Positions 1,186 through 43,753 of a DNA stretch of 64,000 bases are shown here, in pieces (position 1 is the first letter of the stretch; each line of letters opens with the position of its first letter). The notes beneath the pieces were generated by a model, which saw only the letters and a list, made by a program, of their open reading frames with translations, searched no databases and had not been told where the DNA came from. Location of the stretch: the NCBI GenBank assembly GCA_964580575.1, contig CAZOLJ010000006.1:825-64824 (forward strand). The letters are read 5' to 3'. Made by a program: the position numbers and the translations under genes. This DNA comes from an uncultured Desulfobacteraceae bacterium. GTDB lineage: Bacteria; Desulfobacterota; DSM-4660; Desulfatiglandales; HGW-15.

Positions 1186-1281
1186 TAATATTGATACCAC
1201 GATTTGCAGTCCTTGGTCGCGATGCGGTTGAGCGACATCGCCTTATCAAGCAATCTTAAAAATTCAGAAAGGAGAAATGAA

Positions 1282-2730
1282 ATGGCAGAAAAGAAAAAAC
1301 TAACCACCAGGAACGGCGCCCCGGTCGTGGATAACCAAAACACCATGACCGCCGGACCCCGCGGCCCGGTATTGCTCCAAGATGTGTGGTACCTGGAGAA
1401 GCTCGCACACTTCGACCGGGAAGTGATCCCGGAGCGCCGCATGCACGCCAAAGGATCGGGCGCCTACGGTACCTTCACTGTCACCCACGACATCACTCGC
1501 TACACCCGGGCAAAAATCTTCTCTAAGATTGGGAAGAAAACCTATCTGTTCGTCCGCTTTTCCACGGTAGCCGGCGAACGCGGCGCCGCTGACGCTGAGC
1601 GGGATATCCGCGGCTTCGCGATGAAGTTCTATACCGAAGAAGGAAACTGGGACCTGGTGGGGAATAACACGCCGGTATTCTTCCTGCGCGACCCCCTCAA
1701 GTTCCCCGACCTGAACCACGCCGTGAAAAGGGATCCCCGCACCAACCTGCGCAGCGCCCTGAACAACTGGGACTTCTGGACTTCGCTCCCCGAAGCCCTG
1801 CACCAGGTCACCATCGTCATGAGCGACCGGGGCATTCCTGCCTCCTACCGCCACATGCACGGTTTCGGCAGCCACACCTTCAGCTTCATCAATGCCAAGA
1901 AGGAGCGCTGCTGGGTCAAGTTCCATTTCCGCACACAGCAGGGTATCAAGAATCTCACTGATGAAGAAGCCGAGAAAGCCATCGGCAAATGCCGGGAGAG
2001 CCACCAGCGTGACCTGTACGGGAGTATCGAAAAGGGCGATTTCCCCCGCTGGACCCTGTTTGTTCAGATCATGCCGGAAAGGGACGCGGCAAAATACCGA
2101 TTCCATCCCTTCGATCTCACCAAAGTATGGCTGAAAAAGGATTATCCGCTGATTGAAGTGGGGGTTCTCGAACTAAACCGCAACCCGGAGAACTATTTCG
2201 CCGAGGTGGAGCAGTCGGCCTTCAACCCGGCCAACGTGGTGCCCGGCATCGGTTTCTCCCCGGACAAGATGCTTCAGGGACGGCTGTTCTCCTATAGCGA
2301 CGCCCAGCGGTATCGTCTCGGAGTCAACCACCACCAGATCCCGGTCAATGCGCCCCGCTGCCCGTACCACAGCTTCCACCGCGACGGATCCATGCGCGTT
2401 GACGGCAATTACGGAAGTACCCTCGGCTATGAACCTAACAGTTTCGGTGAGTGGCAACAGCAGCCCGAGTTTGCCGAGCCGCCCCTGGCACTGGAGGGAG
2501 CTGCGGATCACTGGGACTTCCGCAAGGACGATGACGACTATTACACCCAGCCCGGTTTGCTGTTTCGCCTCATGAGCGCCAAGCAAAAGAAGGCCCTGTT
2601 CGAGAACACCGCCCGCTCCATTGCCGAGGCGACAGAGGAAATCAAGCTCCGCCATATTGGCAACTGCCTGAAGGCTGACCCCGCCTACGGCGAAGGCGTT
2701 CGCGCCGCGCTCAAGAGACTTGGCGGGTAG
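1282..2730 (+). CDS. katA: Monofunctional haem catalase
   Basis: Catalase signatures '[14 protein letters not shown]', 'RFSTV.GE.G' and 'R.FSY.D.QRYRLG'. ATG at 1282 follows RBS AGGAG (1270-1275); the longer track ORF from 1204 is probably upstream read-in. Confidence 0.95.
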
Positions 2731-2755
2731 GCCGCATCGTGATAGAGTCGCAGGA

Positions 2756-2805
2756 AATCCCCCCAACCCCCCCTTCAGTAAAGGGGGAGGAGGGGGGATT
2801 TTTTG
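2756..2805 (+). terminator. Rho-independent terminator after catalase
   Basis: C-rich arm AATCCCCCCAACCCCCCCTT pairs with G-rich arm AAGGGGGAGGAGGGGGGATT, followed by TTTTTT. Confidence 0.75.
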
Positions 2806-2878
2806 CAGGAGTTTCGTGTAGCACACTGACCAATTTGTTATCGCCTTTGTATTCGACCAAGGAAAGGAGGGGAGAACT

Positions 2879-3994
2879 TTGAACCGAACAGAGCGTTACA
2901 TCAAAGCATTGCTGATGACCGGAGCGGTCGCGGCGGCGCTGGTGACTTGTTTTGCTTTCGCCGGACCGCTAGGGCTGCCGCCGATGCCGGTTCCGGCCGA
3001 TAACCCCATCACGCCCGAAAAAGCGAAGCTTGGCGACAAGCTGTTTCATGACCAGCGCTTCAGCACCACAGGAGAGGTCAGTTGCTCCACCTGTCATGAC
3101 AAGGACAAGGGGTTTACCGATGAGCTTCCTGTGTCGGAGGGCATTAACAAGCTCAAGGGCACCCGAAACGCACCGACCGTCATCAATGCAGCCTATCTGG
3201 AAACCCAGTTCTGGGACGGTCGTGAGCCCACCCTCGAGTCCCAGTCGGCCCAGCCTTTTGTGAACCCCGTGGAAATGGGCCTCAAAGACCATGATCCCAT
3301 TCTCAAGATCGTACGAACCGATCCGGAATACCAGGCCCTCTTCAAGAAAGCTTTCGACAAAAGCGGGGACCAGATTACCATGGTGGAGGTAGAGAAGGCC
3401 CTGGCCACCTTTCAGAGAACCCTCATCGCAGGGAACAGCCCCTTTGATCGCTATTACTTCGGAGAAGACAAGAAAGCCATGAGCCCTGCCGCGGTTCGGG
3501 GGCTGGACATTTTTGTCGAGCAGGGAAGGTGTGTCTCGTGCCACGTGATCGAGCAAACCCAGGCGCTTTTCACCGACAACCGTTTTCACATGATCGGGGT
3601 GGCGGCCCACCGGATGCCCAAAGATCTGGACGAACTGTCGGCCGCGGTCGAGGATGTCAAGAAAAAGGGAACGGACATTGCGGTGCTTAGCGACGCAAAA
3701 ACCTCGTCCCTCGGTCGGTACGCGGTGACGCGTGATCTCACGGACATCGGCGCCTTCAAGACGCCCACGCTCCGCAACATCGATCTCACGGCCCCTTACA
3801 TGCATGACGGGAGCCTCAAGACCCTGAAGGAAGTGGTGCAGTTCTACAACAACGGGGGACGGGTGAAGGAGAGCGATCCCCTCCCTGATCTCTTGAGCGG
3901 CGGTATCCGGCCCCTCGACCTCACCGAAGAGCAGGAGAACGACCTGGTGGAATTCATGAAGGCCCTGACGAGCCCAGAATTTGTCCGCAAGTAA
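2879..3994 (+). CDS. ccpA: Di-haem cytochrome c peroxidase
   Basis: Signal peptide, two CxxCH sites (CSTCH, CVSCH) and 'FKTPTLRN...APYMHDG' typical of bacterial CCP/MauG. TTG start. Confidence 0.9.
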   Translation: MNRTERYIKALLMTGAVAAALVTCFAFAGPLGLPPMPVPADNPITPEKAKLGDKLFHDQRFSTTGEVSCSTCHDKDKGFTDELPVSEGINKLKGTRNAPTVINAAYLETQFWDGREPTLESQSAQPFVNPVEMGLKDHDPILKIVRTDPEYQALFKKAFDKSGDQITMVEVEKALATFQRTLIAGNSPFDRYYFGEDKKAMSPAAVRGLDIFVEQGRCVSCHVIEQTQALFTDNRFHMIGVAAHRMPKDLDELSAAVEDVKKKGTDIAVLSDAKTSSLGRYAVTRDLTDIGAFKTPTLRNIDLTAPYMHDGSLKTLKEVVQFYNNGGRVKESDPLPDLLSGGIRPLDLTEEQENDLVEFMKALTSPEFVRK

Positions 3995-4031
3995 CGCACA
4001 AGAGCGAAAGACGATCAAGGAGGTCAATGCG

Positions 4032-5105
4032 ATGGAATTGAACCGACGTGCATTTCTCAAGACAACCGGTGCAGCCTTGATGGCGACCGCGCTTCCCATG
4101 AGCCTGGTGAAGATCGCTTTCGGCGGCCAGAGTCCCAGCCAGGACTTCACTTTTGGATACCTTTCCGACGCCCACATCCAGCTCATCAAAGGGACCAAAT
4201 TCGTGCGCAACTGGGACAGGGGACTGATCCGGAGCGTCCAAGAAGCCAATCTCCTGACTCCGCGACCGGACTTTTTCATGTTCGGCGGGGACTTGGCCCA
4301 GCTCGGCATGAAAGAGGAACTGGACCACGGCCTGGAGATCATGTCCAAGCTCAGAGGCAAGGTTCACTATGTCATCGGCGAGCACGACTTCTACCTCGAT
4401 CTCGGGGAGTACTGGCAGAAGAAGATAGGGCCCCTGTGGTACAGCTTTGATCACAAGGGCGTTCATTTCGTGGTGCTCAACAGCATCCTCACCTATGACC
4501 GCTGGACCCACAAGAAATGGGAGAGTCCCATGGAGCGGATGCTGGCCATGGCGAGGCTTGACAACCCCGAGGGGTCGCCGTTCATGGTGGGTGAGCAGCA
4601 GCTCGGATGGTTGAAGAAGGACCTGGCCAAGGTAAACGAGAACACGCCCGTAGTGGTCTTCTCACACTCGCCGATTCAGAAGATCTACCAGGGGTGGAAC
4701 TTCTGGACCGAAGATGCGGAAAAAGTGCAGGCCCTGCTGAAACCCTTCAAGAAGGTGACGGTGATCTACGGCCATGTGCACCAGATCCAGTACAATCAGA
4801 TCGGCAACATCAGCTTTCACGCGGTGATGGCCACAGCCTGGCCCTGGCCCTATCCCCAGTCCTACACCCAGGTGGCCAGTCGTCTTCCCAATCTGACCGC
4901 GCCCATGAACCGCGCCGATCCCTTCTTTGAAAGGGATGCCACGGGCTGGCAGTTCATCGATCTGAAGAAAGGCAACGTGGACATGCACTACCAGTTGCCC
5001 GACAACGAGAACCGAAGGGTTGGCTTCAGCGCCAAAACCGGTTCTCCGCAAGATGCGAAGTACCAGGCGCCCGGTAGCCGGATTCCGCCTCAAACCCACT
5101 TCTAG
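4032..5105 (+). CDS. Tat-exported metallophosphoesterase (calcineurin-like)
   Basis: ATG at 4032 after RBS AAGGAGG. Twin-arginine leader 'NRRAFLKTTGA'. Motifs 'SDAHI', 'GGDL', 'GEHD' and 'GHVH'. Confidence 0.8.
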   Translation: MELNRRAFLKTTGAALMATALPMSLVKIAFGGQSPSQDFTFGYLSDAHIQLIKGTKFVRNWDRGLIRSVQEANLLTPRPDFFMFGGDLAQLGMKEELDHGLEIMSKLRGKVHYVIGEHDFYLDLGEYWQKKIGPLWYSFDHKGVHFVVLNSILTYDRWTHKKWESPMERMLAMARLDNPEGSPFMVGEQQLGWLKKDLAKVNENTPVVVFSHSPIQKIYQGWNFWTEDAEKVQALLKPFKKVTVIYGHVHQIQYNQIGNISFHAVMATAWPWPYPQSYTQVASRLPNLTAPMNRADPFFERDATGWQFIDLKKGNVDMHYQLPDNENRRVGFSAKTGSPQDAKYQAPGSRIPPQTHF

Positions 5106-5125
5106 GCGTTGCAAGGAGGTATTCC

Positions 5126-5548
5126 ATGGGGAAGAAGAAAAGGTCCCTCACCTTGGCTATGGCGGGGGCATGTGTATCCATTGTCCTGATGATGTGTTTT
5201 CCGATTCAGGCGGACGAGTTCACCAAGAAAGATCTGGAGCGATGGCAGAAGGAGTTCATGACCGTTGTGGCGGAGGGCGACAAGCTCTTTCACAGCTCCA
5301 GTCTGGGGAAGAACAAAGTGTCCTGCGACCAGTGCCATCCGAACGGGGCCAACACGCACCCGGAGACTTATCCCAAGTTCCAGAAGCAGACCGGCAAAGT
5401 GATTTCGCTCTTCGAGATGGTCAACTGGTGTCTCCGGAACCCCTTGGAGGGGGAGTCCCTGGCTGCCGATGACCCGAAGATGGTCGCCCTTCTTGCCTAC
5501 ATCACCTATGAGCGGCGGGGTGTGCCTCTCGCACCGGGGAAGCACTGA
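5126..5548 (+). CDS. Periplasmic mono-haem c-type cytochrome
   Basis: Signal peptide and a single CDQCH haem-binding site; 140 aa. Confidence 0.75.
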   Translation: MGKKKRSLTLAMAGACVSIVLMMCFPIQADEFTKKDLERWQKEFMTVVAEGDKLFHSSSLGKNKVSCDQCHPNGANTHPETYPKFQKQTGKVISLFEMVNWCLRNPLEGESLAADDPKMVALLAYITYERRGVPLAPGKH

Positions 5549-5566
5549 TCTTCGCAGTAAAGAGAG

Positions 5567-5652
5567 AATCAGGAACACCTTAAGCTTTTGGGTACTGGAA
5601 CCGCCAACCTGGCATGAGGGTTGCCTTCATGGCGGGAAATTCCTGATTTTTT
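5567..5652 (+). terminator. Large nested stem-loop plus U-tract between the cytochrome c and peroxiredoxin genes (terminator or attenuator-like)
   Basis: Outer stem AATCAGGAA (5567-5575) with TTCCTGATT (5640-5648). Inner stem CCGCCA (5601-5606) with TGGCGG (5630-5635). T-run at 5647-5652. Confidence 0.45.
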
Positions 5653-5771
5653 GAAGAGGAGGTGAAAGGATGAAAGAACTCAAAGTCGGATGTGGCAAGC
5701 CGACCGGTTCGACGGTCGGCGGCTCTTCAGAGGAGAAGAAGACAGCGGTAGAAGAGAAAAAGGAGGTCGCC

Positions 5772-6383
5772 ATGGTAGTAGTGAGAGTTGGGGGCAAGGC
5801 GCCGGATTTTGAAGCTCCGGCTTATCAGAATGGGCAGTTCGGACAGATAAAGCTTTCGGACTATCTTGGGAAATGGGTAGCCTTGTGCTTTTATCCGGGA
5901 GATTTCACTTTTGTCTGAGCAACGGAATTGGCGGCAGTTGCCTCCAAATACAATGACTTTCAGGCCCTGGGCACGGAGATTCTCTCCGTGAGTGTGGACA
6001 GCCACTTCGTACACAAGATGTGGCAGGATAACGAGCTTTCCAAGATGGTCAAAGGCGGCGTGCCCTTCCCCATGCTGTCGGACCAGACCGGTAGAATCGG
6101 CACCGTGTACGGCGTTTATAACCAAGATGCAGGCGTCGAAATGAGAGGACGATTCCTCATTGATCCTGACGGCGTGGTGCAGGCCATCGAAATCCTGACC
6201 CCGCCGGTGGGCCGCAATGTACAAGAAATGCTCCGGCAGATCCAGGCCTTTCAGCATGTCCGAAACAGCAAGGGCACGGAAGCCACCCCATCGGGCTGGC
6301 AACCGGGAAGACCCGTTCTCAAACCGGGTCCGGATCTGGTCGGCAAAGTCTGGGAAGTGTGGAAAGTGGAAAACGCCTTTTAG
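5772..6383 (+). CDS. Peroxiredoxin (AhpC/Prx family) with selenocysteine at the peroxidatic position (UGA 5916-5918 recoded)
   Basis: Track ORFs 5670-5918 and 5928-6383 share a frame and are separated only by TGA. The joined sequence reads '[17 protein letters not shown]..', where the Prx consensus is FTFVCPTE. ATG at 5772 follows RBS AGGAGG. Hairpin at 5928-5947. Confidence 0.8.
5928..5947 (+). promoter_or_regulatory. Candidate bacterial SECIS hairpin for the Prx UGA
   Basis: TTGGCGGC-AGTT-GCCTCCAA forms an 8-bp stem with one mismatch, starting 9 nt after the UGA. Confidence 0.4.
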
Positions 6384-6491
6384 CACGCCGATTCAGCCCC
6401 AAGCGGGAAATACGATTGATCAAAAAGTCCAAACCGGTTGTTCCTGGGGCGGGGCCCATGGCGCCGCCCCTCTATTTTTTTGGATTTCAGA

Positions 6492-6920
6492 ATGCTCAGC
6501 TTTCTTGTTGGGATCGGGATTCTTACCGCCATCGTGCTTCTGTGGTTTTTGATCACCTACTGGCTGAACCCCCACGTGGAGTCTCCGGATGGAAAAGCGC
6601 GCATCACCGGATCGTGCGGAGATACCATGGAGATTTCTTTGAAGTTCCGCAACGAAAGGGTGACTGAAGCCGCCTATTGGACAAACGGCTGCGCTTACAG
6701 CTTGAATTGCATCTGTGCCGCTGCAGACCTGGCCAAAGGGAAGACTCCCGATGAGATCCTGGTGATCGATCCTGAACTCATCCAGCAGTCGGTAGGCGGT
6801 CTCCCTCAGGACCAGATGCATTGCGCCAGGTTGAGCGTGGAGACGCTCCACACCGCTTTGGAGGACTACATGCAAAACACGAGGGGAAGTGGGAAAAGGG
6901 CGAACGCCGGCAAGGCCTAG
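6492..6920 (+). CDS. Membrane-anchored NifU/IscU N-terminal-domain-like protein
   Basis: N-terminal TM helix, then 'GSCGDTMEISL...NGCAYS...HCARLSVETLHTALEDY', the three-Cys IscU-like pattern. Paralogue at 34758-35201. Start uncertain (6438 or 6492). Confidence 0.65.
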   Translation: MLSFLVGIGILTAIVLLWFLITYWLNPHVESPDGKARITGSCGDTMEISLKFRNERVTEAAYWTNGCAYSLNCICAAADLAKGKTPDEILVIDPELIQQSVGGLPQDQMHCARLSVETLHTALEDYMQNTRGSGKRANAGKA

Positions 6921-6921
6921 A

Positions 6922-8289
6922 TCATGACAGAACCTGTTTTTCGGGAGGCTCGATATTGAGACGCTTCATTTTGCGCCACAGGGTGGTCGGGTGGATGCCC
7001 ATTTCCGCAGCCGTGGCAGTTCTGTTCCACTGATTGCGTTTGAGGGCCTCTCGAATGTAACTTCTTTCCATCTCGCCCAAGGAGGACGGCCTAGTTTCCG
7101 GGGGTCTGTGCAACCTGCTCTCCTCCGAGTTCCTGAAAAAATCCGGCAGGTGTTCCACACCGATCGTGCCGTTCTTGCAAACGACCGTGGCGTACTCGAT
7201 GATGTTTTCCAGCTCCCGAACGTTCCCGGGAAAATCATGGGACATGAGGATGGGGAATGCTTCGGGGGAGAGGCCCTGGATCTCCTTGCCGCTCAGGCGG
7301 CAGAATTTCCGTATGAAGTGTTCCACCAGGATGGGGATGTCTTCTCTCCTGTCGCGCAGAGGAGGAAGAACGAGCTTGACCACGTTGATGCGATAGTAGA
7401 GGTCCTGTCTGAACTTTCCTTCTTCCACCAGGCTCTGGAGGTTTTTGTTTGTGGCGGCAACGATCCGGACATCCGTTTTCAGAGACTTCGTGCTTCCAAG
7501 AGGCTCATAGGTCTTGTCCTGGAGCACCCGGAGGAGACGGACCTGCATGGCAGGAGAAATGTCGCCGATTTCATCCAGGAAGAGGGTTCCGCCGTCGGCC
7601 ACAGCCAGTCGCCCGGGCTTGTCTTTGAACGCTGTACTGTGGGCGCCCTTCTCATAGCCGAAAAGCTCTGATTCCAAAAGCGCGTCAGGCAGAGACCCGC
7701 AGTTGATCGTGATCAGAGGCCCGGTCTTCCTCGGACTCAAGGCGTGAATCGCCTTGGCGAACAGCTCCTTGCCTGTGCCGCTTTCGCCTTCCAGAAGAAT
7801 TGTGGCGTCGCTTTCAGAGACCTGCTCCAGAATCCCGAAAAGACGCCTCATCTCTTTATTCTTGCTGGTGATGTCCTGAAACGAGTGGCGTTTTGTAAGC
7901 TCTTTACGGAGTTCCTCCACCACACTCAAGTCTCGAAAGGTCTCCACCCCCCCGATGACGTGATCCTGCTCATCCCTTAGAAGGGCCGTGGAAATGCTGA
8001 CAGGGAGTCTTTCCCCGTGAAGATTGACAATGTAGATGGACTGGTTCACCGCGGGCTGGCCCGTCTTCATAGTATGCTTAAGAGCGCACCGCTTTTCGCA
8101 AATGCTGGCCCTAAAGACCTCCCAGCATTGGCGGCCAATGGCTTCTTCTTTCTTGATGCCAGTAATCTTCTCAGCAGAGCGATTAAACGATGTGACTTTT
8201 AAATCGGAGTCCACCGTAAAAACGCCGTCTGCAATGCTGTCCAGAATGATCTTTGTCTGGTTTTCCGTTTGTCGACCCATGGGTTCCAA
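6922..8289 (-). CDS. Sigma-54-dependent transcriptional activator (PAS + AAA+ + Fis-type HTH, no receiver domain)
   Basis: 'GESGTGKE', 'ESELFGYEKGA' and 'GGTLFLDEIG' motifs and a C-terminal HTH. The N-terminal PAS carries a C-x8-C-x3-C motif. Confidence 0.9.
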   Translation of the reverse strand: MEPMGRQTENQTKIILDSIADGVFTVDSDLKVTSFNRSAEKITGIKKEEAIGRQCWEVFRASICEKRCALKHTMKTGQPAVNQSIYIVNLHGERLPVSISTALLRDEQDHVIGGVETFRDLSVVEELRKELTKRHSFQDITSKNKEMRRLFGILEQVSESDATILLEGESGTGKELFAKAIHALSPRKTGPLITINCGSLPDALLESELFGYEKGAHSTAFKDKPGRLAVADGGTLFLDEIGDISPAMQVRLLRVLQDKTYEPLGSTKSLKTDVRIVAATNKNLQSLVEEGKFRQDLYYRINVVKLVLPPLRDRREDIPILVEHFIRKFCRLSGKEIQGLSPEAFPILMSHDFPGNVRELENIIEYATVVCKNGTIGVEHLPDFFRNSEESRLHRPPETRPSSLGEMERSYIREALKRNQWNRTATAAEMGIHPTTLWRKMKRLNIEPPEKQVLS

Positions 8290-8858: not shown

Positions 8859-9731
8859 ATGAGCTTTCAAAAGAGACTGTCGTCCGGTGAATTCGTGATT
8901 CTGGCCCAGATGAACACGCCCAAAGGCGTCAATATCTCCGAAATGGTCAACAACGCTCGTCGTATCAAAGAGCGCGTCCATGGGGTTGTCATCCCTGACA
9001 TGGACAACGGGGTCATGCGGATGAGTGCCATGGCCGGGGGAGCCCTCATGCGACAACAGGGGCTGGAACCCATCATGCACGTGTATGGCCGCGACAAGAA
9101 CAGGATGGCCCTCCAGGGAGATATTCTTGCAGCCTACGTGCTGGGCATCCAGACCCTGGTGGTCGTGAAGGGCGAAAACATGTCAGCCGGCGATCATGTC
9201 CAGGCCAAAACCGTAGACGATCTGGATGCGCTCAGCCTTCTGGAGGCTATCCGCTCCCTTAAGAAAGGCACAGACATGGCGGGTTTTGAACTCGACGGCA
9301 ACCCCGACTTCACGGTGGGCTGCACTCTGGGACCTTTTGTGGACGACCAAACGCTCGATCAGGAAATCGAGAAGGCGCAGATGAAGGTTGAAGCCGGCGC
9401 GCAATTCCTCCTGACTCCCGCCGTCTTCAACATCGATCGGTTCTCCTCCTTTCTGAATAAGGTAAAGGGGCTGGGAGTCCCCATTATCCCGACCGTATTC
9501 CTACTGAAGACGGTGGGCATTGCAAGGTACATGGCGACCTACGAGCCCGGCGCTTTCATTTCCGAGCCCCTGATCAAGCGCATGCGCCAGTCCAAAAATC
9601 GCGAAATGGAAGGCTTTATCATCGCAGGGGAAACCATTAAACAGCTCAAGGGTGTTGTGCAGGGGGTACAGATTGTCACCCTCGGATGGGAACACCGCCT
9701 GACGACGATACTGGACTACGCGGAACTCTAA
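8859..9731 (+). CDS. Methylenetetrahydrofolate reductase family protein (MetF paralogue)
   Basis: 290 aa. Sequence similarity to the MetF at 13985 in the 'RMSA/S..A...Q.GL.PI.H...RD.NR.ALQ.DILGA' block (seen in both ORFs). Confidence 0.8.
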   Translation: MSFQKRLSSGEFVILAQMNTPKGVNISEMVNNARRIKERVHGVVIPDMDNGVMRMSAMAGGALMRQQGLEPIMHVYGRDKNRMALQGDILAAYVLGIQTLVVVKGENMSAGDHVQAKTVDDLDALSLLEAIRSLKKGTDMAGFELDGNPDFTVGCTLGPFVDDQTLDQEIEKAQMKVEAGAQFLLTPAVFNIDRFSSFLNKVKGLGVPIIPTVFLLKTVGIARYMATYEPGAFISEPLIKRMRQSKNREMEGFIIAGETIKQLKGVVQGVQIVTLGWEHRLTTILDYAEL

Positions 9732-9803
9732 CCAGTGTCTCTTTCATTTCCTTTATCCCCATTCGTTGTTTGGGAGCGGCCATAGGCTTGCATTTGGATC
9801 GAT

Positions 9804-12800
9804 ATGAAAAACAATGAGATGATCAAGAACAGTAATAGAACCCTTGTGATCGGGGGCGGCGTAGGAGGAATCAAGACGGCGCTGGACCTTGCGGAGGCTG
9901 GCCGGGATGTCGTTCTCATCGACAAAGCCCCGGCGATCGGTGGTCTCATGACCCAATTGGACCGCACCTTCCCGACCAACAACTGTGACCTGTGCACCCT
10001 TTCTCCTCACCTGGCGGAAAGCGGCAGGCAGCTCCACATCGAGCTTCTCCCCTTGACTCAATTGGCCGCCGTGGAAGGGCAAGCCGGAGCGTTCAGGGTC
10101 ACCCTGAAGTCCGCTCCAAGGTTCCTTGACCTTTCGAAATGCACGGCTTGCGGGGAGTGCCTCAAAGAATGCCCCGAGTGTGTCCGCTTCACACCGGGCT
10201 TGGACCACCGGGCGCCCACCTGCATGCGCTATCCCAGAGCCACTCCCTATGCCTACTCCATTGACATCGAAAAGTGCACGGACCTGGACCGATTGGTTCA
10301 TGTCTGCCGAGCGGACGCGATCCTGCCCAAAGATTCGGAGACAATGCGGGAGATTACGGTGGGCTCGATCGTGCTCGCGGCCGGAGCCGGCGTGTTCGAT
10401 CCGGCAGCGCTGGAGGACTATGGGTACGGCACGCGGCCGAATGTGCTGACGGGCCTGGAATACGAGCGAATCCTCTCGGCTTCAGGGCCGACTTTGGGGC
10501 AATTGGTCCGGCCCTCGGACGGAAAACAACCCAAAAGGGTGGCCTGGATCCAGTGCGTGGGATCGCGAAGTGTGAAGGAAGGGTGTCTCCCCTATTGCTC
10601 CAGCGCCTGCTGCATGTATGCTCTGAAAGAGGCGATGGTGACCAAGGAGCGATTCCACGAAGACATAGAGACCGTGATCTTCTACATGGACATGCGCACG
10701 TCGGGGAAAGACTACGAGCTCTATTTGAACCGGGCTAAGGAACAGTTCGGCGTTCGCCTGGAACGAACCCGGCCTCACACCGTGGAGACCGTCCCCGGCT
10801 CCGATGACCTCTCCATCACCTATGTTTCTGCAGGTGCCAGCCTGCCCAAGAAGGAAGTTTTCGACATGGTGGTTCTTTCGACGGGATTTGTGATTCCCCC
10901 GGATGCGGTGGAACTGGCGGCCCGCCTGGGCATCAAGCTCAATGAACATGCTTTCGCTAAAACCGGAAGCTTCAGCCCTGTGGCGACCTCTCAACCGGGC
11001 ATCTACGTGGTCGGGCTCTCCGAAAGCCCCAAGGACATTCCCGAAACCATGGTGCAGGCAAGCGCCGCAGCGTGCATGGCCGCTCAGTACCTCACGAGCG
11101 CGGAGCCGACCGCCGAAGAAGAGGAAGAGGGGGACTTGCCGGCCGAGCGGGATGTGAGCTCTGAGGAGCCGAGGATCGGAGTCTTCATCTGCGACTGCGG
11201 GACCAACATCGGCGGTCTCCTGGACGTGTACCAGTTGGTGAAATATGCGGCTCGGCTGCCCCAGGTGGTTGTCTCTGAGATGACCGGGCGAGGATGTTCC
11301 AGGGAATCCCTGGAGGCGATTCAGCGTTCGATTCAGGAAAACTCTCTGAACCGCGTGGTGATTGGAGGATGCTCCCCAAGGACTCACGAAACCCTTTTTC
11401 AAGATACCGTGCGCACGGCCGGCCTCAACAAATACCTGGTCGAAATGGCTAACATCCGCGATCAGGACACCTGGGTGCACCTGGATCAGCCCGAGGAGGC
11501 CCTGAACAAGGGAAAAGACCTGACCCGTATGGCGGTGTCGGCGGTGGCCCTGGCCCACCCGCTCACGGAACACGTTCTCCCCATGAACAAGAACGCGCTG
11601 GTGGTGGGGGGAGGCGTTGCAGGAATGAACGCGGCCCTGGCCCTGGCCGACCAGGGCATGAGGGTCTACCTTGCGGAGAAAGCCGCAGCCCTTGGAGGCG
11701 TGGCCGTCGACATCCGCAGGACCCTGGAAGGAGAAGATGTTAAAGCCTATTTGACCAACCTCATCGATCGCACCCTGCACCACCCCAACATCCAGGTCCT
11801 GACGCGGTCCGTCATCGTGGATCACAGCGGCATGCCCGGCCTCTTTAAGACCGGCCTTCAGGTAGGTCCCCAGATGTTCTACCGGCAATTCACCCACGGC
11901 GTCACCATTCTGGCAACAGGCGCGGTGCCGAACCGGCCGCAGGAATACCTTCTGGACGACCACGACGCCGTTCTGACCCAGCTGGACCTGGACCGCCTCC
12001 TCGAAGAGCAGCCTGACAAAGCCAGGGGCTGGGAGAAGGTGGTCATGATCCAGTGCGTGGGCTCCCGGTGTCCTGAAAACCCCAACTGCTCGCGCATTTG
12101 TTGTCAGTCGGCCGTCAAGAACGCCTTGAGGCTGCTCGATCTCAACCCAGCCATTCAGATCTCCGTGCTCTACAGGGACATGCGGACCTACGGGTTCCAA
12201 GAAGACGCTTATCGAAAGGCCCGGGAGCGGGGTGTCCTTTTCTTCCGCTTCGAAGAGAAAGACAAACCCGTTGTCGAGGCGGACGGGGAAAGGGTAAAGG
12301 TCTCCTTTACGGATCCGATTCTAGAGAAAAAGATGACCGTATCCGCCGACAGCCTGGCCCTCAGCACCGGGCTCATTGCGGATGACGAAGGAACCGAAGA
12401 CCTGGCCATGGTGTTCCGCCTGGCCCGGACCCCGGACGGCTTTTTCCTGGAAGATCACGTCAAGCTCCGGCCTGTGGACCTGCCGGTTCCCGGGTTTTTT
12501 GTGGCCGGCACGGCCCATTCGCCCAAGACCATCCGGGAGAGCATTGCCCAGGCCCAGGCCGCGGCTGGCCGCGCGCAGACGCTTCTGGCGAGAAACGTGA
12601 TCAACCTGGGTGCGGCAGTCGCAAGGGTGGACGGCAAGAAATGCGCGGCCTGTCTCATTTGCGTCCGGGCCTGTCCGTTTGATGTTCCGTTTATCAACGC
12701 GGACGGCTATTCGGAAATCGATCCGGCCAAGTGCCACGGCTGCGGCGTGTGCGCTGCCGAATGCCCGGCCAAGGCCATCCAGCTCATGCAGTATGAAGAC

Positions 12801-12851
12801 GATCATCTCATGGCCAAACTCGACGGCCTGTTGGAAGGGGTGCTTCAGTGA
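9804..12851 (+). CDS. hdrA: Large HdrA-like flavoprotein (heterodisulfide reductase subunit A family, two FAD/Rossmann modules)
   Basis: 'VIGGGVGG' and 'VVGGGVAGM' dinucleotide folds, 'FPTNNCDLCTLSP', 'WIQCVGSR...YCSSACCMYA' and a C-terminal 2x[4Fe-4S] motif. Cys, not Sec, at the HdrA thiol position. Confidence 0.85.
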   Translation: MKNNEMIKNSNRTLVIGGGVGGIKTALDLAEAGRDVVLIDKAPAIGGLMTQLDRTFPTNNCDLCTLSPHLAESGRQLHIELLPLTQLAAVEGQAGAFRVTLKSAPRFLDLSKCTACGECLKECPECVRFTPGLDHRAPTCMRYPRATPYAYSIDIEKCTDLDRLVHVCRADAILPKDSETMREITVGSIVLAAGAGVFDPAALEDYGYGTRPNVLTGLEYERILSASGPTLGQLVRPSDGKQPKRVAWIQCVGSRSVKEGCLPYCSSACCMYALKEAMVTKERFHEDIETVIFYMDMRTSGKDYELYLNRAKEQFGVRLERTRPHTVETVPGSDDLSITYVSAGASLPKKEVFDMVVLSTGFVIPPDAVELAARLGIKLNEHAFAKTGSFSPVATSQPGIYVVGLSESPKDIPETMVQASAAACMAAQYLTSAEPTAEEEEEGDLPAERDVSSEEPRIGVFICDCGTNIGGLLDVYQLVKYAARLPQVVVSEMTGRGCSRESLEAIQRSIQENSLNRVVIGGCSPRTHETLFQDTVRTAGLNKYLVEMANIRDQDTWVHLDQPEEALNKGKDLTRMAVSAVALAHPLTEHVLPMNKNALVVGGGVAGMNAALALADQGMRVYLAEKAAALGGVAVDIRRTLEGEDVKAYLTNLIDRTLHHPNIQVLTRSVIVDHSGMPGLFKTGLQVGPQMFYRQFTHGVTILATGAVPNRPQEYLLDDHDAVLTQLDLDRLLEEQPDKARGWEKVVMIQCVGSRCPENPNCSRICCQSAVKNALRLLDLNPAIQISVLYRDMRTYGFQEDAYRKARERGVLFFRFEEKDKPVVEADGERVKVSFTDPILEKKMTVSADSLALSTGLIADDEGTEDLAMVFRLARTPDGFFLEDHVKLRPVDLPVPGFFVAGTAHSPKTIRESIAQAQAAAGRAQTLLARNVINLGAAVARVDGKKCAACLICVRACPFDVPFINADGYSEIDPAKCHGCGVCAAECPAKAIQLMQYEDDHLMAKLDGLLEGVLQ

Positions 12852-13291
12852 AATCCTTTGAACCCGTTATCGTGGCGTTCTGCTGCCATTACTGTGCCTA
12901 CACGGCGGCGGACATGGCAGGGAGTATGAGACGCTGCTATCCTCCTAACGTGCATATCCTCCGGGTCCCTTGCTCAGGGAAGGTGGACGCGATTCATATC
13001 ATGAAGGCTTTTCAAAAAGGCGCCGACGGCGTCTATGTGGCCGGTTGCCTGGAAGGGGACTGTCACTTCAAGGACGGGAACCTCAAGGCGGCCCGTCGGG
13101 TGGCCTATGTGAAGAAGCTCCTCGATGAGATCGGCGTGGGCGGGGAGCGACTTGAAATGATGACCCTGTCTGCGGGCATGGGCGAGCGTTTTGCGGTCAC
13201 GGCCTCCGAATTCACCGAGAAAATTCGGAGCCTGGGACCCAACCCGGTGAAAGGGGCGGCACAAGCCGGGCAAACGGCTGCGGCCGGTTGA
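12848..13291 (+). CDS. mvhD: MvhD-like protein (methyl-viologen-reducing hydrogenase delta subunit family), Cys form
   Basis: 'FCCHYCAY..AD.AG', 'RVPCSGKV' and 'GADGVYVAGCLEGDCHF'. GTG start overlaps the hdrA stop. Confidence 0.85.
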   Translation: MKSFEPVIVAFCCHYCAYTAADMAGSMRRCYPPNVHILRVPCSGKVDAIHIMKAFQKGADGVYVAGCLEGDCHFKDGNLKAARRVAYVKKLLDEIGVGGERLEMMTLSAGMGERFAVTASEFTEKIRSLGPNPVKGAAQAGQTAAAG

Positions 13292-13319
13292 TCGATGAGG
13301 TGAAGGAGAAGAGGAAACA

Positions 13320-13988
13320 ATGATCACTGCAGAGCGAAAACCGATTGAAGAAATCATGGAATTGATCCGGCCTTTCAACCGGATTCTTCTGGTGGGCTGC
13401 AACGAGTGTGTAACGGTTTGCGCTGCCGGAGGCCGCAAGGAGGTGGGCCTTTTGTCCTCCGCCCTTCAGATGGCTTGCATGAAGGAAGGCAAAGTCCTGG
13501 ATGTGAAGGAAATGACCCTGGAGCGGCAGTGCGACCCGGAATACGTTGAAGAGCTCGTGAGCGCGATCAACCAAGCGGATGCCGTGCTCTCCATGGCCTG
13601 TGGGTGCGGCGTTCAGGAAGTGGCGAGGCGCTTCAAGGAAAAACCGGTCCTTCCGGCCGTGAACACGAAATTCATGGGGGCTTCGGAGCGTCAGGGCGTG
13701 TGGGCCGAGCGATGCCAGGGATGTGGGGACTGTGTGCTCGGGCTGACCGGCGGGATCTGCCCTATCGCCCGGTGCTCCAAAAGGCTTCTCAATGGTCCCT
13801 GCGGAGGTTCGACGCGCGGGAAATGCGAAATCAACGCCGAGGTGGACTGTGCGTGGCAGTTGATCTGGGACCGGCTGAAAGCCCTTGGACTGGAAAAACG
13901 TTATGAGGACATCATGCCGGCAAAAGACTGGCGCACCAGCCGGGACGGCGGTCCCAGGCGAATCATCAGAGAGGATCTCGCATCATGA
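13320..13988 (+). CDS. metV: MetV-like Cys-rich small subunit of methylene-THF reductase
   Basis: Cys-rich 222 aa ('GCNECV', 'CQGCGDCVL..GICP.ARC.K...NGPCGG'). It lies immediately upstream of metF and overlaps it. Confidence 0.75.
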   Translation: MITAERKPIEEIMELIRPFNRILLVGCNECVTVCAAGGRKEVGLLSSALQMACMKEGKVLDVKEMTLERQCDPEYVEELVSAINQADAVLSMACGCGVQEVARRFKEKPVLPAVNTKFMGASERQGVWAERCQGCGDCVLGLTGGICPIARCSKRLLNGPCGGSTRGKCEINAEVDCAWQLIWDRLKALGLEKRYEDIMPAKDWRTSRDGGPRRIIREDLAS

Positions 13989-14908
13989 AAACGGAAAGCG
14001 TACTGGAAAGAATTCTGGCCGCCGGGCATCTGGCGGTGACTTCCGAGTGCGGCCCCCCCCGGGGCGCGGTGCCTGAAAAAGTCAGGGAAAAGGCCGAAAA
14101 ACTCAGGAGCTATGTGGATGCCATCAACGTGACGGACAACCAGACGGCCATGGTCCGCATGTCCAGTTTTGCCGCCTGTCTCATCATTCGACAGATGGGC
14201 CTGCATCCCATTCTACAAATGGTGACCAGGGATCGGAATCGACTGGCCATGCAAAGCGATATTCTCGGCGCCTACTCGCACGGAATCAACACCATGCTCT
14301 GCCTTTCCGGGGATCATCCCTGCTTCGGAGACCACCCCATGGCGGCGAATGTGTATGACCTGGACTCAATCCAGTTTATCCAGATGGTGAAAAACATGCG
14401 GGACAACGGAAAGTTCCAGGGAGGCGATGAGATCCTCAACCCTCCCAAGATGTTCATCGGCGCAGCCGCCAACCCCTTTGCCGACCCCTTTGAACTGCGC
14501 GTAGCCCGTTTGGCCAAGAAAGTCAAGGCCGGCGCGGACTTCATCCAGACCCAATGCATCTACGATCTGCCAAGGTTCGAGAAATGGATGGAGGGGGTTC
14601 GGGATCGAGGCCTTCATGAAAAGGTCGCCATTCTCGCGGGAGTGACGCCTTTCAAGTCCGTGGGCATGGCCAAATACATGAAAAACAAGGTCCCTGGCAT
14701 GAGCGTCCCGGACGAGATGATCAAGCGCCTATCCGGAGTCCCAAAGGACAAACAGGCCGAAGAGGGTCTCAACATTTGCGTGGAGACCATGCAACGCCTC
14801 AAAGAGGTGAAAGGCGTAGCCGGTTTCCACATCATGGCGATCGAATGGGAAGAAAAAGTGCCGGAGATCGTGAAAAAGGCGGGACTTCATCCGCGGCCGG
14901 GGGTGTGA
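13985..14908 (+). CDS. metF: Methylenetetrahydrofolate reductase
   Basis: 307 aa MTHFR fold motifs ('INVTDN', 'RDRNR.A.QSD.LGA', 'GADFIQTQ'), translationally coupled to metV. Confidence 0.85.
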   Translation: MKTESVLERILAAGHLAVTSECGPPRGAVPEKVREKAEKLRSYVDAINVTDNQTAMVRMSSFAACLIIRQMGLHPILQMVTRDRNRLAMQSDILGAYSHGINTMLCLSGDHPCFGDHPMAANVYDLDSIQFIQMVKNMRDNGKFQGGDEILNPPKMFIGAAANPFADPFELRVARLAKKVKAGADFIQTQCIYDLPRFEKWMEGVRDRGLHEKVAILAGVTPFKSVGMAKYMKNKVPGMSVPDEMIKRLSGVPKDKQAEEGLNICVETMQRLKEVKGVAGFHIMAIEWEEKVPEIVKKAGLHPRPGV

Positions 14909-16474: not shown

Positions 16475-18025
16475 ATGATCGAAAAGGCCGTTGAGGCGGA
16501 GGATTGGCGGTTGAGGGTCTTTGACTCTCTTTCCTTTCCAACCCTCATCCTGAGACCGGACAAGGTCATTGTCACGGCCAATGAGAAGCTCTTGGACAAA
16601 TTCGGTGTCCGCATGGAAGACATCGTCGGCAAGACTTGTCACGAGGTCTTCTACAATTCGAAAGAACCCTGCTCCGCGTATCTTTGCCCCCTTCCTGGAG
16701 TCCTGGCCATAGGCGAAGGACATTCCATCCTGCGAGAGGTTACCCTCAGCACCGGCGAAAAGGCATGGGAGGACAGAGTCTTCTCTCCCATCAAGGACGA
16801 TGCCGGTAACATCATCTACATCATGGAGAGCCTCCGGGACGTGACCAGGATCAAGACCCTCGAGAGGACGCTCGAAGAGACCAGGGAATTCCTGGAAAAG
16901 GTCATCCAGAGTTCAGCGAGCGCTATTGTTGCAGCGGATATGGACGGAAATATCCTGATCATGAATCGAGCGGCTGAAACTCTCTTCGGATTTTCCGTCA
17001 GAGAAGCGAAAGGGAAAAAAAGTGTGATCGATCTGTACCCTCCCGGTAAGGCCAAAGAGCTTATGCGGGAGATGCGAAAGGGAAAGAGGGGTGGAAAAGG
17101 CAAACTCCCTCTCACGAAGGTCAACATTCTGAATATCAAAGGGGAAGTGATCCCTGTGGAAGTTACGGCATCCATCATTTACGAACAAAAAAAGGAAGTG
17201 GCCACCATGGGGATTTACAATGACCTCAGGGACAAACTCGCCGTAGAAAAAGCGCTAAAAGACACTCAGGCCCAGCTCTCCCAGTCGGAGAAAATGGCTT
17301 CCCTGGGCCAGTTGGCGGCAGGGGTGGCCCATGAAGTCAACAATCCCCTCACGGGAATCCTTCTCTATGCGAGCATGGCTCTGGAGCAAATGAATAAGGA
17401 TGATCCTATGCGGGAACACCTGGGATACATCGTGGAAGACGTCAATCGATGCAAAGGCATTGTGAAAAACCTGCTCGCCTACAGCAGACGATCGACAACC
17501 ACTAAAGAAATCATCCCGCTCAATGATCTGGTCCATCAGAGCCTGAACCTCATCCGCGACCAGAAGCTCTTTGGGAACATCGTGGTCGTCAAGGAACTGT
17601 CAGAAGAAATGATGATGGTTCACGCGGACAAAAACCAACTCGCCCAGGTGCTCATTAATCTCATCTTGAATGCCTGTGCAGCCATGAGCGGAGAGGGCGT
17701 GTTGACGTTTCGGACTTACCGGGACAAGCCGAACAAGCTGGCCTACCTGGAGGTTAAGGACAACGGTTGCGGCATCGCCGAAGAAAACCTGGCGAAGATA
17801 TTCGACCCTTTTTTTACCACCAAAGAACCGGGGAAGGGCACAGGGTTAGGGTTGAGCACTTCTCTCGGCATCATCCAGGAGAGCGGAGGCCGTCTTTCCG
17901 TCAGGGAAACGGGTCCCCAGGGGACCACGTTTGTTGTGGAACTGCCTCTTTTCGTTCCGGAAGAAGGCTCTGAAGACTTATTGCCACCGGATGGTTTGAA
18001 CGGCGAAAGGACTACCTACACATGA
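16475..18025 (+). CDS. PAS-PAS sensor histidine kinase
   Basis: HisKA H-box 'GVAHEVNNPL', N/G boxes 'DNGCGI' and 'GTGLGL'. The first PAS has 'CHEVF..(x10)C..(x4)CP'. Confidence 0.85.
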   Translation: MIEKAVEAEDWRLRVFDSLSFPTLILRPDKVIVTANEKLLDKFGVRMEDIVGKTCHEVFYNSKEPCSAYLCPLPGVLAIGEGHSILREVTLSTGEKAWEDRVFSPIKDDAGNIIYIMESLRDVTRIKTLERTLEETREFLEKVIQSSASAIVAADMDGNILIMNRAAETLFGFSVREAKGKKSVIDLYPPGKAKELMREMRKGKRGGKGKLPLTKVNILNIKGEVIPVEVTASIIYEQKKEVATMGIYNDLRDKLAVEKALKDTQAQLSQSEKMASLGQLAAGVAHEVNNPLTGILLYASMALEQMNKDDPMREHLGYIVEDVNRCKGIVKNLLAYSRRSTTTKEIIPLNDLVHQSLNLIRDQKLFGNIVVVKELSEEMMMVHADKNQLAQVLINLILNACAAMSGEGVLTFRTYRDKPNKLAYLEVKDNGCGIAEENLAKIFDPFFTTKEPGKGTGLGLSTSLGIIQESGGRLSVRETGPQGTTFVVELPLFVPEEGSEDLLPPDGLNGERTTYT

Positions 18026-19497
18026 AAGACGATACAAAATCCAAAACAGCCTATCGCGCCCGGGTTCTGGTTGTGGACGACGAGAAACGAATCCGAGACG
18101 GCTGCAACAGCATCCTTAACGCAGCAGGGTTCGAGGTTGGGCTGGCGGAGAACGGCTACGCAGGGCTGAAAAAGATCGGGGAAGAGCACTTTGACATCAT
18201 CCTGCTGGACTTGATGATGCCGGGTTTGCGGGGGATTGATTTGCTGGAACATGTGAAGGCTCGGCACCCCGATACGCTTGTCATCGTGATCACCGGCTAC
18301 GCCACGCTGGAGCACGCTGTGGAGGCCATGAAAAAGGGCGCTTTTGACTTTATTTCAAAGCCCTTTTCCCCGGAGGATTTGCGGACGGTGATTGGACGGG
18401 CCATCGAGTACATCCGAAGCCTCGAGGATATCGCCCACGAGAAATCGCGCATGGGCACGCTGATCAACCACCTCTTAGACGGGGTCATGGCCACAGACGG
18501 CGAGAAACAGGTGGCGCTGGCGAACCCGGCGTTTCTCAAGCTCACGGGGTATCGAGGGGAGAGCCCCATCGGCTTGCCGGTCAATAAACTGATCCAAAAC
18601 GAAAAACTGCTCCAGTTGATTGATGAAGCGCTCTCCATGCCTGCTGATCAGTTTACTGAACTGACGGACGAGTTTGATCAGGGGGCTCTCGCTGAAAACA
18701 AGGAGACTGTTCTGGCGGTGCGATGCGTGCCTTTCAGGGACAGACTTCACCGGAACCTGGGGACCGTGACGGTCGTCCATGATATCACCGCTCTGAAAAA
18801 GATGGACAAAATCAAATCGGATTTCGTTTCCATGGTGGCCCACGAGATCAAAAGCCCCATGAATTCGGTCCTGGCGCTTGTCAAAGTCGTTCAAGATCGT
18901 TTGGCGGGAGAGGTCACAGAGAAGCAGCAGGAGATCCTGGGCAGGGTGTCGGAAAAAATCAAGGGTCTTTCAGATCTCGCAGCCGATCTTCTGGATCTTT
19001 CCAGAATAGAATCCGGGTTGATCACGCTCGAAAAGGAAAGACTCCAGATTGCCTCTCTGCTCAACGAGCAGGTGGCTTTTCATCAGACCCGGGCCCAGGG
19101 CAAGCGCATTCAACTGAACCTGGAGTCTCTTTCGGAACTTGCCCCCATCCTGGCGAACAAAAGGGCCATCGAGGAGGTTTTCGCGAACCTACTGACCAAC
19201 GCCATCAAGTACACGCCGGAGGACGGGACGGTAAGCGTATCCGCTTTCGCTGAAAAGGACTATGTCCACATTGCGGTGAAGGACACGGGATTCGGCATTT
19301 CTCAGGAAAACCTGGGCAGGATCTTCGAACGCTTTTATCGGGTGAAGGACGACAAGACCCGAATGATTTCAGGAACAGGGCTCGGCCTGGCCATCGTGAA
19401 AAGCATTGTGGAGGCCCACAATGGGAGAATCGAAGCGGAAAGCGAACCGGACCGCGGTTCCACCTTCCACGTCTTTCTGCCCATCATGCAAAGTTAG
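18022..19497 (+). CDS. Hybrid receiver-PAS-histidine kinase
   Basis: N-terminal 'VLVVDDE...LLDLMMP' receiver, H-box 'MVAHEIKSP', 'DTGFGI' and 'GTGLGL'. Confidence 0.85.
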   Translation: MKDDTKSKTAYRARVLVVDDEKRIRDGCNSILNAAGFEVGLAENGYAGLKKIGEEHFDIILLDLMMPGLRGIDLLEHVKARHPDTLVIVITGYATLEHAVEAMKKGAFDFISKPFSPEDLRTVIGRAIEYIRSLEDIAHEKSRMGTLINHLLDGVMATDGEKQVALANPAFLKLTGYRGESPIGLPVNKLIQNEKLLQLIDEALSMPADQFTELTDEFDQGALAENKETVLAVRCVPFRDRLHRNLGTVTVVHDITALKKMDKIKSDFVSMVAHEIKSPMNSVLALVKVVQDRLAGEVTEKQQEILGRVSEKIKGLSDLAADLLDLSRIESGLITLEKERLQIASLLNEQVAFHQTRAQGKRIQLNLESLSELAPILANKRAIEEVFANLLTNAIKYTPEDGTVSVSAFAEKDYVHIAVKDTGFGISQENLGRIFERFYRVKDDKTRMISGTGLGLAIVKSIVEAHNGRIEAESEPDRGSTFHVFLPIMQS

Positions 19498-40982: not shown

Positions 40983-40996
40983 ACTCCTTCTTCAAT

Positions 40997-41100
40997 CTGG
41001 AGTGATGGAGTGATGGAGTAGTGGAGTGTTGGGTTGAACAATTCAAGAAACCATCGATGACCTTCCATCACTCCAGTGCTCCAATACTCCAGTGCTCCAT
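40997..41100. repeat. Intercistronic hairpin element A built from degenerate 8-nt tandem repeats (TGGAGYRN)
   Basis: Left arm 40997-41033 is CTGGAGTGATGGAGTGATGGAGTAGTGGAGTGTTGGG. Right arm 41065-41100 is CCATCACTCCAGTGCTCCAATACTCCAGTGCTCCAT (inverted copies). 31-nt spacer. Confidence 0.6.
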
Positions 41101-41102
41101 TC

Positions 41103-42140: not shown

Positions 42141-42152
42141 AACGCGAATCCT

Positions 42153-43636: not shown

Positions 43637-43654
43637 AGATAGCTCCTCAGCTCA

Positions 43655-43749: not shown

Positions 43750-43753
43750 CTTC

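Follow-up and report, generated by a model that had tools for sequence, protein, structure and literature searches.

A peroxiredoxin gene of the PrxU family with a UGA selenocysteine codon at its peroxidatic position in an uncultured deltaproteobacterium

We analyzed a 64,000-nucleotide (64-kb) stretch of contig CAZOLJ010000006.1 (assembly GCA_964580575.1) from an uncultured Desulfobacteraceae bacterium, which is called the window below, and in particular a peroxiredoxin (Prx) gene near its left end that is interrupted by an in-frame TGA codon at positions 5916-5918. Comparison with its relatives makes it very probable that this gene is prxU, that its UGA codon is read through as selenocysteine (Sec) under the direction of a selenocysteine insertion sequence (SECIS) just downstream, and that the resulting thioredoxin-dependent-type Prx, with Sec as its peroxidatic residue, belongs to a peroxide-defence cluster. 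An earlier inspection of these letters without database searches (the sequence-only reading) had centrally proposed a Prx1/AhpC-type Prx of a known family with Sec in place of the peroxidatic Cys and a SECIS downstream, and that proposal is supported here. The right annotation of the locus is a single selenoprotein gene (5670-6383, Sec at codon 83) rather than fragments or a pseudogene. Its elements, as we read them, are as follows:

5633-5655, + strand: terminator-like hairpin and T-run upstream of prxU, after the cytochrome c gene (weak, from a consensus scan only)
5656-5664, + strand: Shine-Dalgarno (SD) sequence 1, GAGGAGGTG, 7 nt ahead of ATG 5670 (read from the sequence)
5670-6383, + strand: prxU, full coding sequence of the long isoform, 237 residues, Sec as residue 83, stop codon TAG at 6381-6383
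5688-5723, + strand: N-terminal motif (family consensus GCARPTGGPVGE), which holds the invariant Cys8 (TGT, 5691-5693)
5760-5767, + strand: internal SD sequence 2, AAGGAGGT, coding for Lys-Glu-Val inside a variable linker
5772-5774, + strand: internal ATG, the start chosen in the sequence-only reading and the probable, predicted start of a 203-residue short isoform
5886-5888, + strand: codon TGC of Cys73, 10 residues ahead of Sec, in a strand
5916-5918, + strand: UGA Sec codon, residue 83, in the motif PGDFTFVU (PxxxTxxU)
5928-5947, + strand: bacterial SECIS hairpin (RNAalifold and covariation among relatives)
6285-6287, + strand: codon of Thr206 in the place of the canonical C-terminal resolving Cys (EATPSGW; EVCPAGW in PRDX2)
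6446-6482, + strand: probable intrinsic terminator, a GC-rich stem (6446-6470) and then a U-run (folding compared with shuffles)

The joined product belongs to the PrxU family

The in-frame TGA lies between an upstream open reading frame (ORF) that runs from ATG 5670 or ATG 5772 to 5918 and a downstream ORF at 5928-6383. As the sequence-only reading held, the two halves share one frame and join into an AhpC/Prx protein; the joined product matches the Pfam families AhpC-TSA (2e-39), Redoxin and 1-cysPrx_C. The product from ATG 5670 scores 404.9 bits against the NCBIfam equivalog model NF040737 (peroxi_PrxU), whose cutoff is 270 bits, and covers positions 2-232 of the 233 in that profile. Every other peroxiredoxin model in the NCBIfam scan scored the window product below its own cutoff, the runner-up being the AhpC model TIGR03137 (193.8 bits, cutoff 272). 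The nearest solved relatives are PRDX2 and AhpC, with E values of 1e-49 to 1e-42 for the sequence matches in the PDB (2e-49 for PRDX2), and residue-level alignment with human PRDX2 places the UGA opposite the peroxidatic Cys of DFTFVCPTE, exactly where it had been placed from the letters alone. The active-site motif is P76-G-D-F-T80-F-V-U83, and the arginines of RGRF(I/L)IDPD are invariant in the alignments of homologues. The structure was modelled with AlphaFold2 (AF2) on P0017, a natural Cys-form homologue that stands in for the window protein; this model superposes on decameric 2-Cys Prx with Foldseek template-modelling (TM) scores of 0.86-0.93 at 40-44% identity. Because of the NF040737 score and this superposition, we assign the protein to the Prx1/AhpC fold and the PrxU family.

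The window gene is thus a further copy, from an uncultured deltaproteobacterium, of an established selenoprotein family that has been known since 2001. PrxU was described from Eubacterium (Peptoclostridium) acidaminophilum (Sohling et al. 2001, as cited in PMC13188914 and PMC9312934), and Sec-Prx (TxxU; Sohling et al. 2001) is counted among the experimentally verified prokaryotic selenoproteins in reviews, including PMC13188914. Reviews also record Sec-Prx in Syntrophobacter, Syntrophus, Geobacter metallireducens and others, and prxU genes were noted earlier in Desulfotignum and Desulfobacterium in the published literature. The family had been called known but uncommon before this analysis; it is certainly known (NF040737 is dedicated to it), but "uncommon" holds only in a relative sense, with relatives encoded in at least 597 species-representative genomes. 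The closest genome copy encodes a 92% identical protein; synteny with it is absent, and the match is limited to prxU itself (86% nucleotide identity).

The UGA codon is conserved among relatives and often misannotated

Two sets of relatives were compared. The database set is made up of the 120 best matches (P0001-P0120, 57-76% identity). The genome set was obtained by scanning one genome per species, and the best 80 of the at least 597 relatives were examined at the Sec column. The patterns by which these loci were found (CFYPGDFT and RGRF[IL]IDPD) leave out the Sec codon, so the result at that codon is not circular: TGA stands at the peroxidatic column in all 80 of these best orthologous loci, and also in L001-L005, five loci fetched for database entries. 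The 80 loci are mostly from Desulfobacterota metagenome-assembled genomes, and the others include Spirochaetota, Caldithrix, Chitinispirillaceae, Anaerolineae, Acidobacteriota, Coriobacteriia and Thermodesulfovibrio.

The deposited proteins look different at first sight. At the Sec column the 120 homologues have Trp (99), Cys (17), Gly (1) or Ser (1), and two fragments stop short of it. The 17 Cys entries agree with the UGA being at the catalytic Cys position. Could the Trp entries mean that UGA encodes a standard amino acid here, through genetic code 4 or 25 (Trp or Gly) or through near-cognate read-through that inserts Trp or Cys independently of a SECIS? The 99 deposited Trp residues are the one point in favor of such a reading, but the codon is TGA in all five loci fetched (L001-L005), and those proteins were not obtained under translation table 11; the Trp is an artefact of the genetic code (UGA as Trp or Gly) used in gene calling on short metagenome contigs. 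Nor is UGA generally reassigned in this genome, because TGA is the commonest stop codon of the 40 Pfam-supported window genes (TGA 16, TAG 15, TAA 9). Furthermore, natural homologues without TGA have Cys at this position and never Trp, by established Prx chemistry an enzyme with Trp as its peroxidatic residue would be inactive, and the conserved N-G-U-N loop of the downstream hairpin (below) is a SelB-type signal. We consider decoding as a standard amino acid highly improbable, and decoding as Sec remains our reading of the codon.

The sequence-only reading expected that automatic annotation would produce two fragments or call a pseudogene. Fragments do occur (P0034 and P0079 are deposited as 151-residue proteins), but the usual outcome is Trp at the Sec column, and a dedicated NCBI model exists. 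This amounts to a systematic annotation error, in which most public metagenomic PrxU entries (99 of the best 120) show a false Trp at the catalytic residue.

A cultured relative, Desulfoferula mesophila (AP028679.1; locus L087, 9061-10107), has a PrxU homologue with Cys (TGC) and a degraded hairpin; about 2.3 kb downstream of it there is a SelD-like gene (AIRS/AIRS_C). The copy appears either to have gone from Sec to Cys or to have kept Cys, in a genome that possibly still uses selenium.

A SECIS hairpin follows the UGA codon

A hairpin at 5928-5947 begins 9 nt past the UGA. Its conserved stem is 5929-5935 paired with 5940-5946, closed by the tetraloop AGUU (5936-5939), and in the window there is an extra U-A pair at 5928/5947. 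An 8-bp hairpin had been reported here; its place and spacing were correct, but the stem is not a perfect 8-bp helix, since the window sequence forms 7 pairs with a C.U mismatch at 5932/5943.

Is this hairpin selected as RNA? We took the 72 nt that surround the UGA in each of 81 distinct sequences, and their alignment is free of gaps. RNAalifold, run independently on these sequences, predicts the same helix, and standard pairs are found in 87.5% of the cells of the specified helix. The covariation score is 0.457, as compared with 0.125 for shuffles (none of 500 reaches 0.457), and registers slid by 1-3 columns give 0.161 at most. Pair 21-36, for example, is UA in 41 sequences, GC in 17, CG in 15 and AU in 5, and pair 24-33 is GC in 44, AU in 23, CG in 7 and UA in 6. 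In the loop, N-G-U-N', the G and U are invariant (81 of 81), and N and N' covary (A..U in 50, G..C in 31). Alignment columns 21, 24, 27, 30, 33 and 36 are third codon positions, and the three covarying pairs fall there; because the covarying columns are third codon positions, it is the RNA, rather than the protein, that is under selection here. A lower helix that encloses the UGA is present in the minimum free energy (MFE) fold of the window, but RNAalifold did not recover it and we do not claim it.

The published criteria for bacterial SECIS (bSECIS) elements (PMC13188914, Fig. 2A) are four: 3-9 nt in the apical loop and 4-16 bp in the upper stem; a G at one of the first two loop positions, usually followed by G or U, with pairing flanks N1/N2; an apical loop that is 16-37 nt past the UGA; and an MFE of -7.5 kcal/mol or lower. 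The window element agrees with all four: a 4-nt loop (5936-5939) sits on a 7-bp conserved stem, the loop reads A-G-U-U, 17 nt (5919-5935) separate it from the UGA, and the hairpin alone folds with -8.4 to -9.2 kcal/mol, an energy test that 91% of the orthologous hairpins pass too. An AGUU or GGUC loop with at least 5 of the 7 stem pairs is present in all 84 TGA copies (the window and 83 fetched loci); an intact stem with an AGUU or GGUC loop is present in none of five natural Cys-form homologues (TGC or TGT).

A second probable selenoprotein gene in the window

An unaided scan for same-frame ORF pairs that are split by TGA gave 139 candidates in this 54% GC window and was too noisy, and only those pairs with Pfam support on both halves were inspected. 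One of these is as follows:

61529 to 60246, - strand: second probable selenoprotein gene, 427 codons, for an HmcF/TmcB/DsrK-like Fe-S (CCG-domain) protein

Its in-frame TGA (60782-60780) is codon 250, and a hairpin follows at 60764-60746 on the same strand. All 118 full-length homologues have Cys at the UGA column (ITE-C-GHAY). The database entries for the two closest relatives (96% and 91% identity) are truncated at 249 residues. The DNA of both (L092 and L093) retains the TGA together with an identical 8-bp hairpin, GCGCUUCG-GUA-CGAAGCGC, although synonymous sites close by differ. The frame continues past the TGA, with the whole C-terminal domain in L093; the contig of L092 ends 44 nt past the TGA. 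The product scores under the NCBIfam cutoffs for HmcF and TmcB. Because two independent genes with UGA at a Cys position and a hairpin lie in one window, a Sec-decoding genome is supported.

A further pair, 43208 to 41103 with TGA 42257-42255, was rejected as a selenoprotein gene: what lies past the TGA does not look like coding sequence and is followed by a new start, so that these are two separate genes.

Evidence against Sec insertion and the pseudogene alternative

Several points weigh against the interpretation given above. Folded alone, the window hairpin does not stand out from shuffled controls (z = +0.7 and -0.67), so that it is shown to be non-random only by comparison with relatives; single-sequence folding is uninformative for a 20-nt hairpin within coding sequence. 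Its stem carries the C.U mismatch, which is also seen at this pair in 12 of the 81 sequences. A search of the whole window with all Rfam families at their gathering thresholds gave no match at all, and so none for this SECIS. The covariation statistic can be inflated by kinship among the sequences, although the slid-register control argues otherwise, and the Cys-form control is small (5 sequences). ARAGORN finds no tRNA, and so no tRNA-Sec, in the 64-kb window, and no SelA, SelB or SelD domain was found in the approximately 50 ORFs scanned there; we infer the Sec machinery of the source organism and do not see it. Finally, we also infer the three functional features discussed below, namely the resolving-thiol role of Cys8 or Cys73, the dependence on thioredoxin and the use of the internal start.

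The lone fold and the lack of Sec machinery in the window would suit a pseudogene, a nonsense mutation or a sequencing error, with an 82-residue fragment or no product at all. A pseudogene or sequencing error is excluded, however, by the retention of TGA at one column in 80 of 80 loci, which come from several phyla, have both flanks intact and are 57-92% identical. In addition, the hairpin covaries at synonymous sites and the full-length product passes the equivalog model. The comparative sequence data effectively refute this alternative, to which we give almost no weight, and we take prxU to be an intact selenoprotein gene in what follows.

Two conserved, probable translation starts

The sequence-only reading began the gene at ATG 5772, and this start is replaced here by ATG 5670, 34 codons upstream, which is the most likely start of prxU. 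The product from 5670 matches essentially the full NF040737 profile (above), and that from 5772 scores 388.1 bits and matches only from profile position 34. The added region contains the conserved N-terminal motif, with the consensus M-x-E-x-K-x-G-C-A-R-P-T-G-G-P-V-G-E (core GCxRPTGGPVGE), whose Cys8 is present in 81 of 81 loci. Its entropy at codon positions 1, 2 and 3 is 0.48, 0.59 and 1.72 bits, respectively; because positions 1 and 2 are conserved and position 3 is nearly saturated, the motif must be translated and under protein-level selection, and the 34 codons upstream of 5772 are therefore part of the gene. Nearly all loci have an upstream ATG with a strong SD sequence, 6-7 codons ahead of this motif, and the anti-SD duplex energy of SD 1 is -13.2 kcal/mol in the window and -11.1 on average in 78 relatives.

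The internal ATG is conserved as well. Its equivalent is found in 78 of 79 loci (L005-L086), preceded by AAGGAGG(T), and in these 78 loci the anti-SD duplex energy averages -11.55 kcal/mol there and -3.56 at other in-frame positions. In 90% of them the internal SD ranks within the best 2% for the gene. The Glu codons at the internal SD are GAG in 104 cases and GAA in 28, as compared with 407 and 551 elsewhere in the gene, and the spacing from SD to ATG is 6 or 9 nt in 58 of the 78 loci. This conservation suggests that one gene gives rise to a long (237-residue) and a short (203-residue) isoform.

The internal SD could instead be a relic of the ancestral Prx start, or a ribosome pause site that spaces ribosomes ahead of the UGA and SECIS, with the long isoform as the only product. 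It does sit in an ORF that is certainly translated from upstream, and Met 5772 aligns with the initiator Met of canonical Prx. A relic should have decayed over such divergence, yet in 78 of 79 loci both the ATG and an SD stronger than any other in the gene persist, with SD-favoring codon choice and a start-like spacing of 6-9 nt. A pause site needs no ATG, and about 25 of the 120 database gene calls picked the internal start. We regard a relic or pause site as rather unlikely; internal initiation would account for these features.

Conserved cysteines and a proposed catalytic cycle

The sequence-only reading further concluded that the enzyme would be of a one-Sec type. The canonical resolving Cys is indeed absent: the C-terminal VCP motif of the typical 2-Cys class is not found in the window protein, and at the Thr206 column the 120 homologues have Thr (102), Ala (12) or Cys (3). 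The type itself is unproven, however, because the 1-Cys class has no second conserved redox Cys, and here there are two candidates. Cys8 (above) is carried on a flexible tether of 27-52 residues across the loci, and residues 1-40 are disordered in the AF2 model of the Cys-form homologue (predicted local distance difference test, pLDDT, 38-56). Cys73 is present in 115 of the 120 homologues and is invariant in alignments A1 and A3, at a position where canonical Prx1/AhpC proteins have Phe. Either Cys could, judging by conservation, be the missing resolving residue.

A catalytic cycle can be proposed as follows. The hairpin at 5928-5947, which offers G-U in a 4-nt loop 17 nt past the UGA, would recruit SelB.GTP.Sec-tRNA(Sec), and the UGA at 5916-5918 would be read as Sec83, as in the established bacterial Sec pathway. 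The selenolate of Sec83, in its PxxxTxxU...R active site, would attack the peroxide O-O bond and become a selenenic acid, which thiols would return to the reduced state. In this step Cys8 on its N-terminal tail (~30 residues), or possibly Cys73, may form a selenenylsulfide that thioredoxin would then reduce. The two SD and ATG sites (5670 and 5772) would probably supply two isoforms, of which only the long one has the tail. Tentatively, then, and as a possibility that we would not yet call probable, PrxU genes are dual-start genes in which one mRNA gives both isoforms, the Cys8 tail of the long one serves as a tethered resolving thiol, the short isoform is tail-less, and the two could co-assemble, with their ratio tuning the recycling of the Sec active sites.

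Does the enzyme need a resolving residue at all? In a true one-Sec (1-Cys-type) Prx an external thiol or thioredoxin would reduce the selenenic acid directly, and Cys8 and Cys73 would have other roles in structure, regulation or partner docking. The Thr in place of the canonical resolving Cys fits this well, as does the short isoform, since a tail-less protein made from the conserved internal start must function without Cys8; the founding E. acidaminophilum PrxU is also said to be a 203-residue protein without a second Cys. On the other hand, Cys8 is invariant in a motif selected at the protein level and lies on a disordered tether whose length would let it reach an active site, and Cys73 is invariant where other Prx1/AhpC proteins show Phe. 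The one-Sec mechanism is a real contender, though short of an even chance. Because Cys8 and Cys73 are so highly conserved, a redox role is the simplest account of them.

Searching the literature for Prx1-type enzymes with an N-terminal resolving Cys gave nothing relevant, and the literature searched, which did not extend to the founding 2001 paper, holds no description of the N-terminal Cys tail or of the internal start. Only one finding here goes beyond textbook knowledge, namely the evidence across the family that an N-terminal tail has an invariant Cys and that two starts are conserved. If real, this would place the resolving residue in a way new to the Prx1/AhpC subfamily and would be a case of isoforms controlled through internal initiation.

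Genomic context of prxU

The genes on either side of prxU are as follows:

1204-2730: catalase, upstream of prxU
2879-3994: di-haem cytochrome c peroxidase, upstream of prxU
3981-5105: metallophosphoesterase with a twin-arginine translocation (Tat) signal, upstream of prxU
5126-5548: SoxA/TsdA-type cytochrome c, immediately upstream of prxU
about 6492-6920: NifU_N-like protein with a hydrophobic N-terminus, downstream of prxU
6922-8289, - strand: divergent sigma-54 activator with PAS domains

Positions 1204-6920 of the window are a peroxide-defence cluster. Within it prxU appears to be its own transcription unit, from the terminator signals at 5633-5655 and 6446-6482; the downstream one has a fold energy of -25.7 kcal/mol (z = -2.43), and 3 of 200 shuffles were equally stable. 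Neighbors that recur beside prxU elsewhere are a Fur/PerR-like regulator, the same NifU-like protein, catalase, a flavodiiron protein, an NADH-oxidase-like flavoprotein and cytochrome bd, and the survey of neighbors in 80 genomes found no recurrent dedicated reductase beside prxU. This neighborhood fits peroxide defence through the general thioredoxin system. A selenium-dependent peroxidase here joins the catalase and cytochrome c peroxidase cluster of an anaerobe, in agreement with the known enrichment of selenoproteins in Deltaproteobacteria.

Other features of the window

Two methylene-tetrahydrofolate reductase (MTHFR) genes (8859-9731 and 13985-14908), the second of which is preceded by a gene for an MTHFR C-terminal-domain protein (13320-13988), flank a gene for an HdrA-like double flavoprotein (9804-12851; 1015 residues, 4Fe-4S domains, no in-frame UGA). 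The arrangement at 8859-14908 resembles the electron-bifurcating MetFV-HdrA type. A redox cluster on the - strand (40131-48911) encodes a NuoF-like FMN/Fe-S subunit (47010-48911), an HdrL-like 2Fe-2S/4Fe-4S/flavin protein of 1077 residues (43754-46987), two Fe-S proteins (42255-43208 and 41103-42254, with TGA 42257-42255 between them as an ordinary stop) and a ferredoxin-NAD(P) reductase-like protein (40131-40982). Genes for PAS-domain histidine kinases, response regulators and sigma-54 activators are unusually dense, with at least 10 in the 64 kb, and are located at 16475-19497, 23149-24417, 26956-27891 and 50210-60180.

Comparison with known systems

The closest known system is the PrxU of E. 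acidaminophilum. Like it, the window protein is Prx1/AhpC-type, has a TxxU motif with UGA at the peroxidatic site and has no canonical C-terminal resolving Cys; unlike it, the window gene comes from an uncultured deltaproteobacterium and not a clostridium. Relative to the founding PrxU, which is reportedly without an N-terminal extension, the window protein adds a 34-residue extension with an invariant Cys, and this extension is in the NF040737 profile.

With typical 2-Cys Prx proteins (human PRDX2 and Salmonella AhpC) the window protein shares its fold, approximately 40-44% identity and the PxxxTxxC/U...R site. It differs from them in having Sec for the peroxidatic Cys, Thr for the resolving Cys and Cys for Phe at position -10, as well as the N-terminal Cys tail.

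The hairpin resembles the E. coli fdhF-type SECIS and the bSECIS consensus in being located within the coding sequence just past the UGA and in its G-U in a small loop with pairing flanks, and the GGUC variant of the loop is presumably identical to the fdhF loop. It differs from them in its short stem of 7 bp, and neither a conserved bulged U nor a conserved lower helix was detected in it.

Lastly, the Sec-containing Prx-like families (UxxC/UxxU thiol:disulfide oxidoreductase, Prx-SUH with CxxU, and UGC Prx-like) belong, like the window protein, to the AhpC-TSA superfamily (PMC13188914), but their Sec is in other motifs than the TxxU of the window protein, which matches the PrxU model and not theirs.

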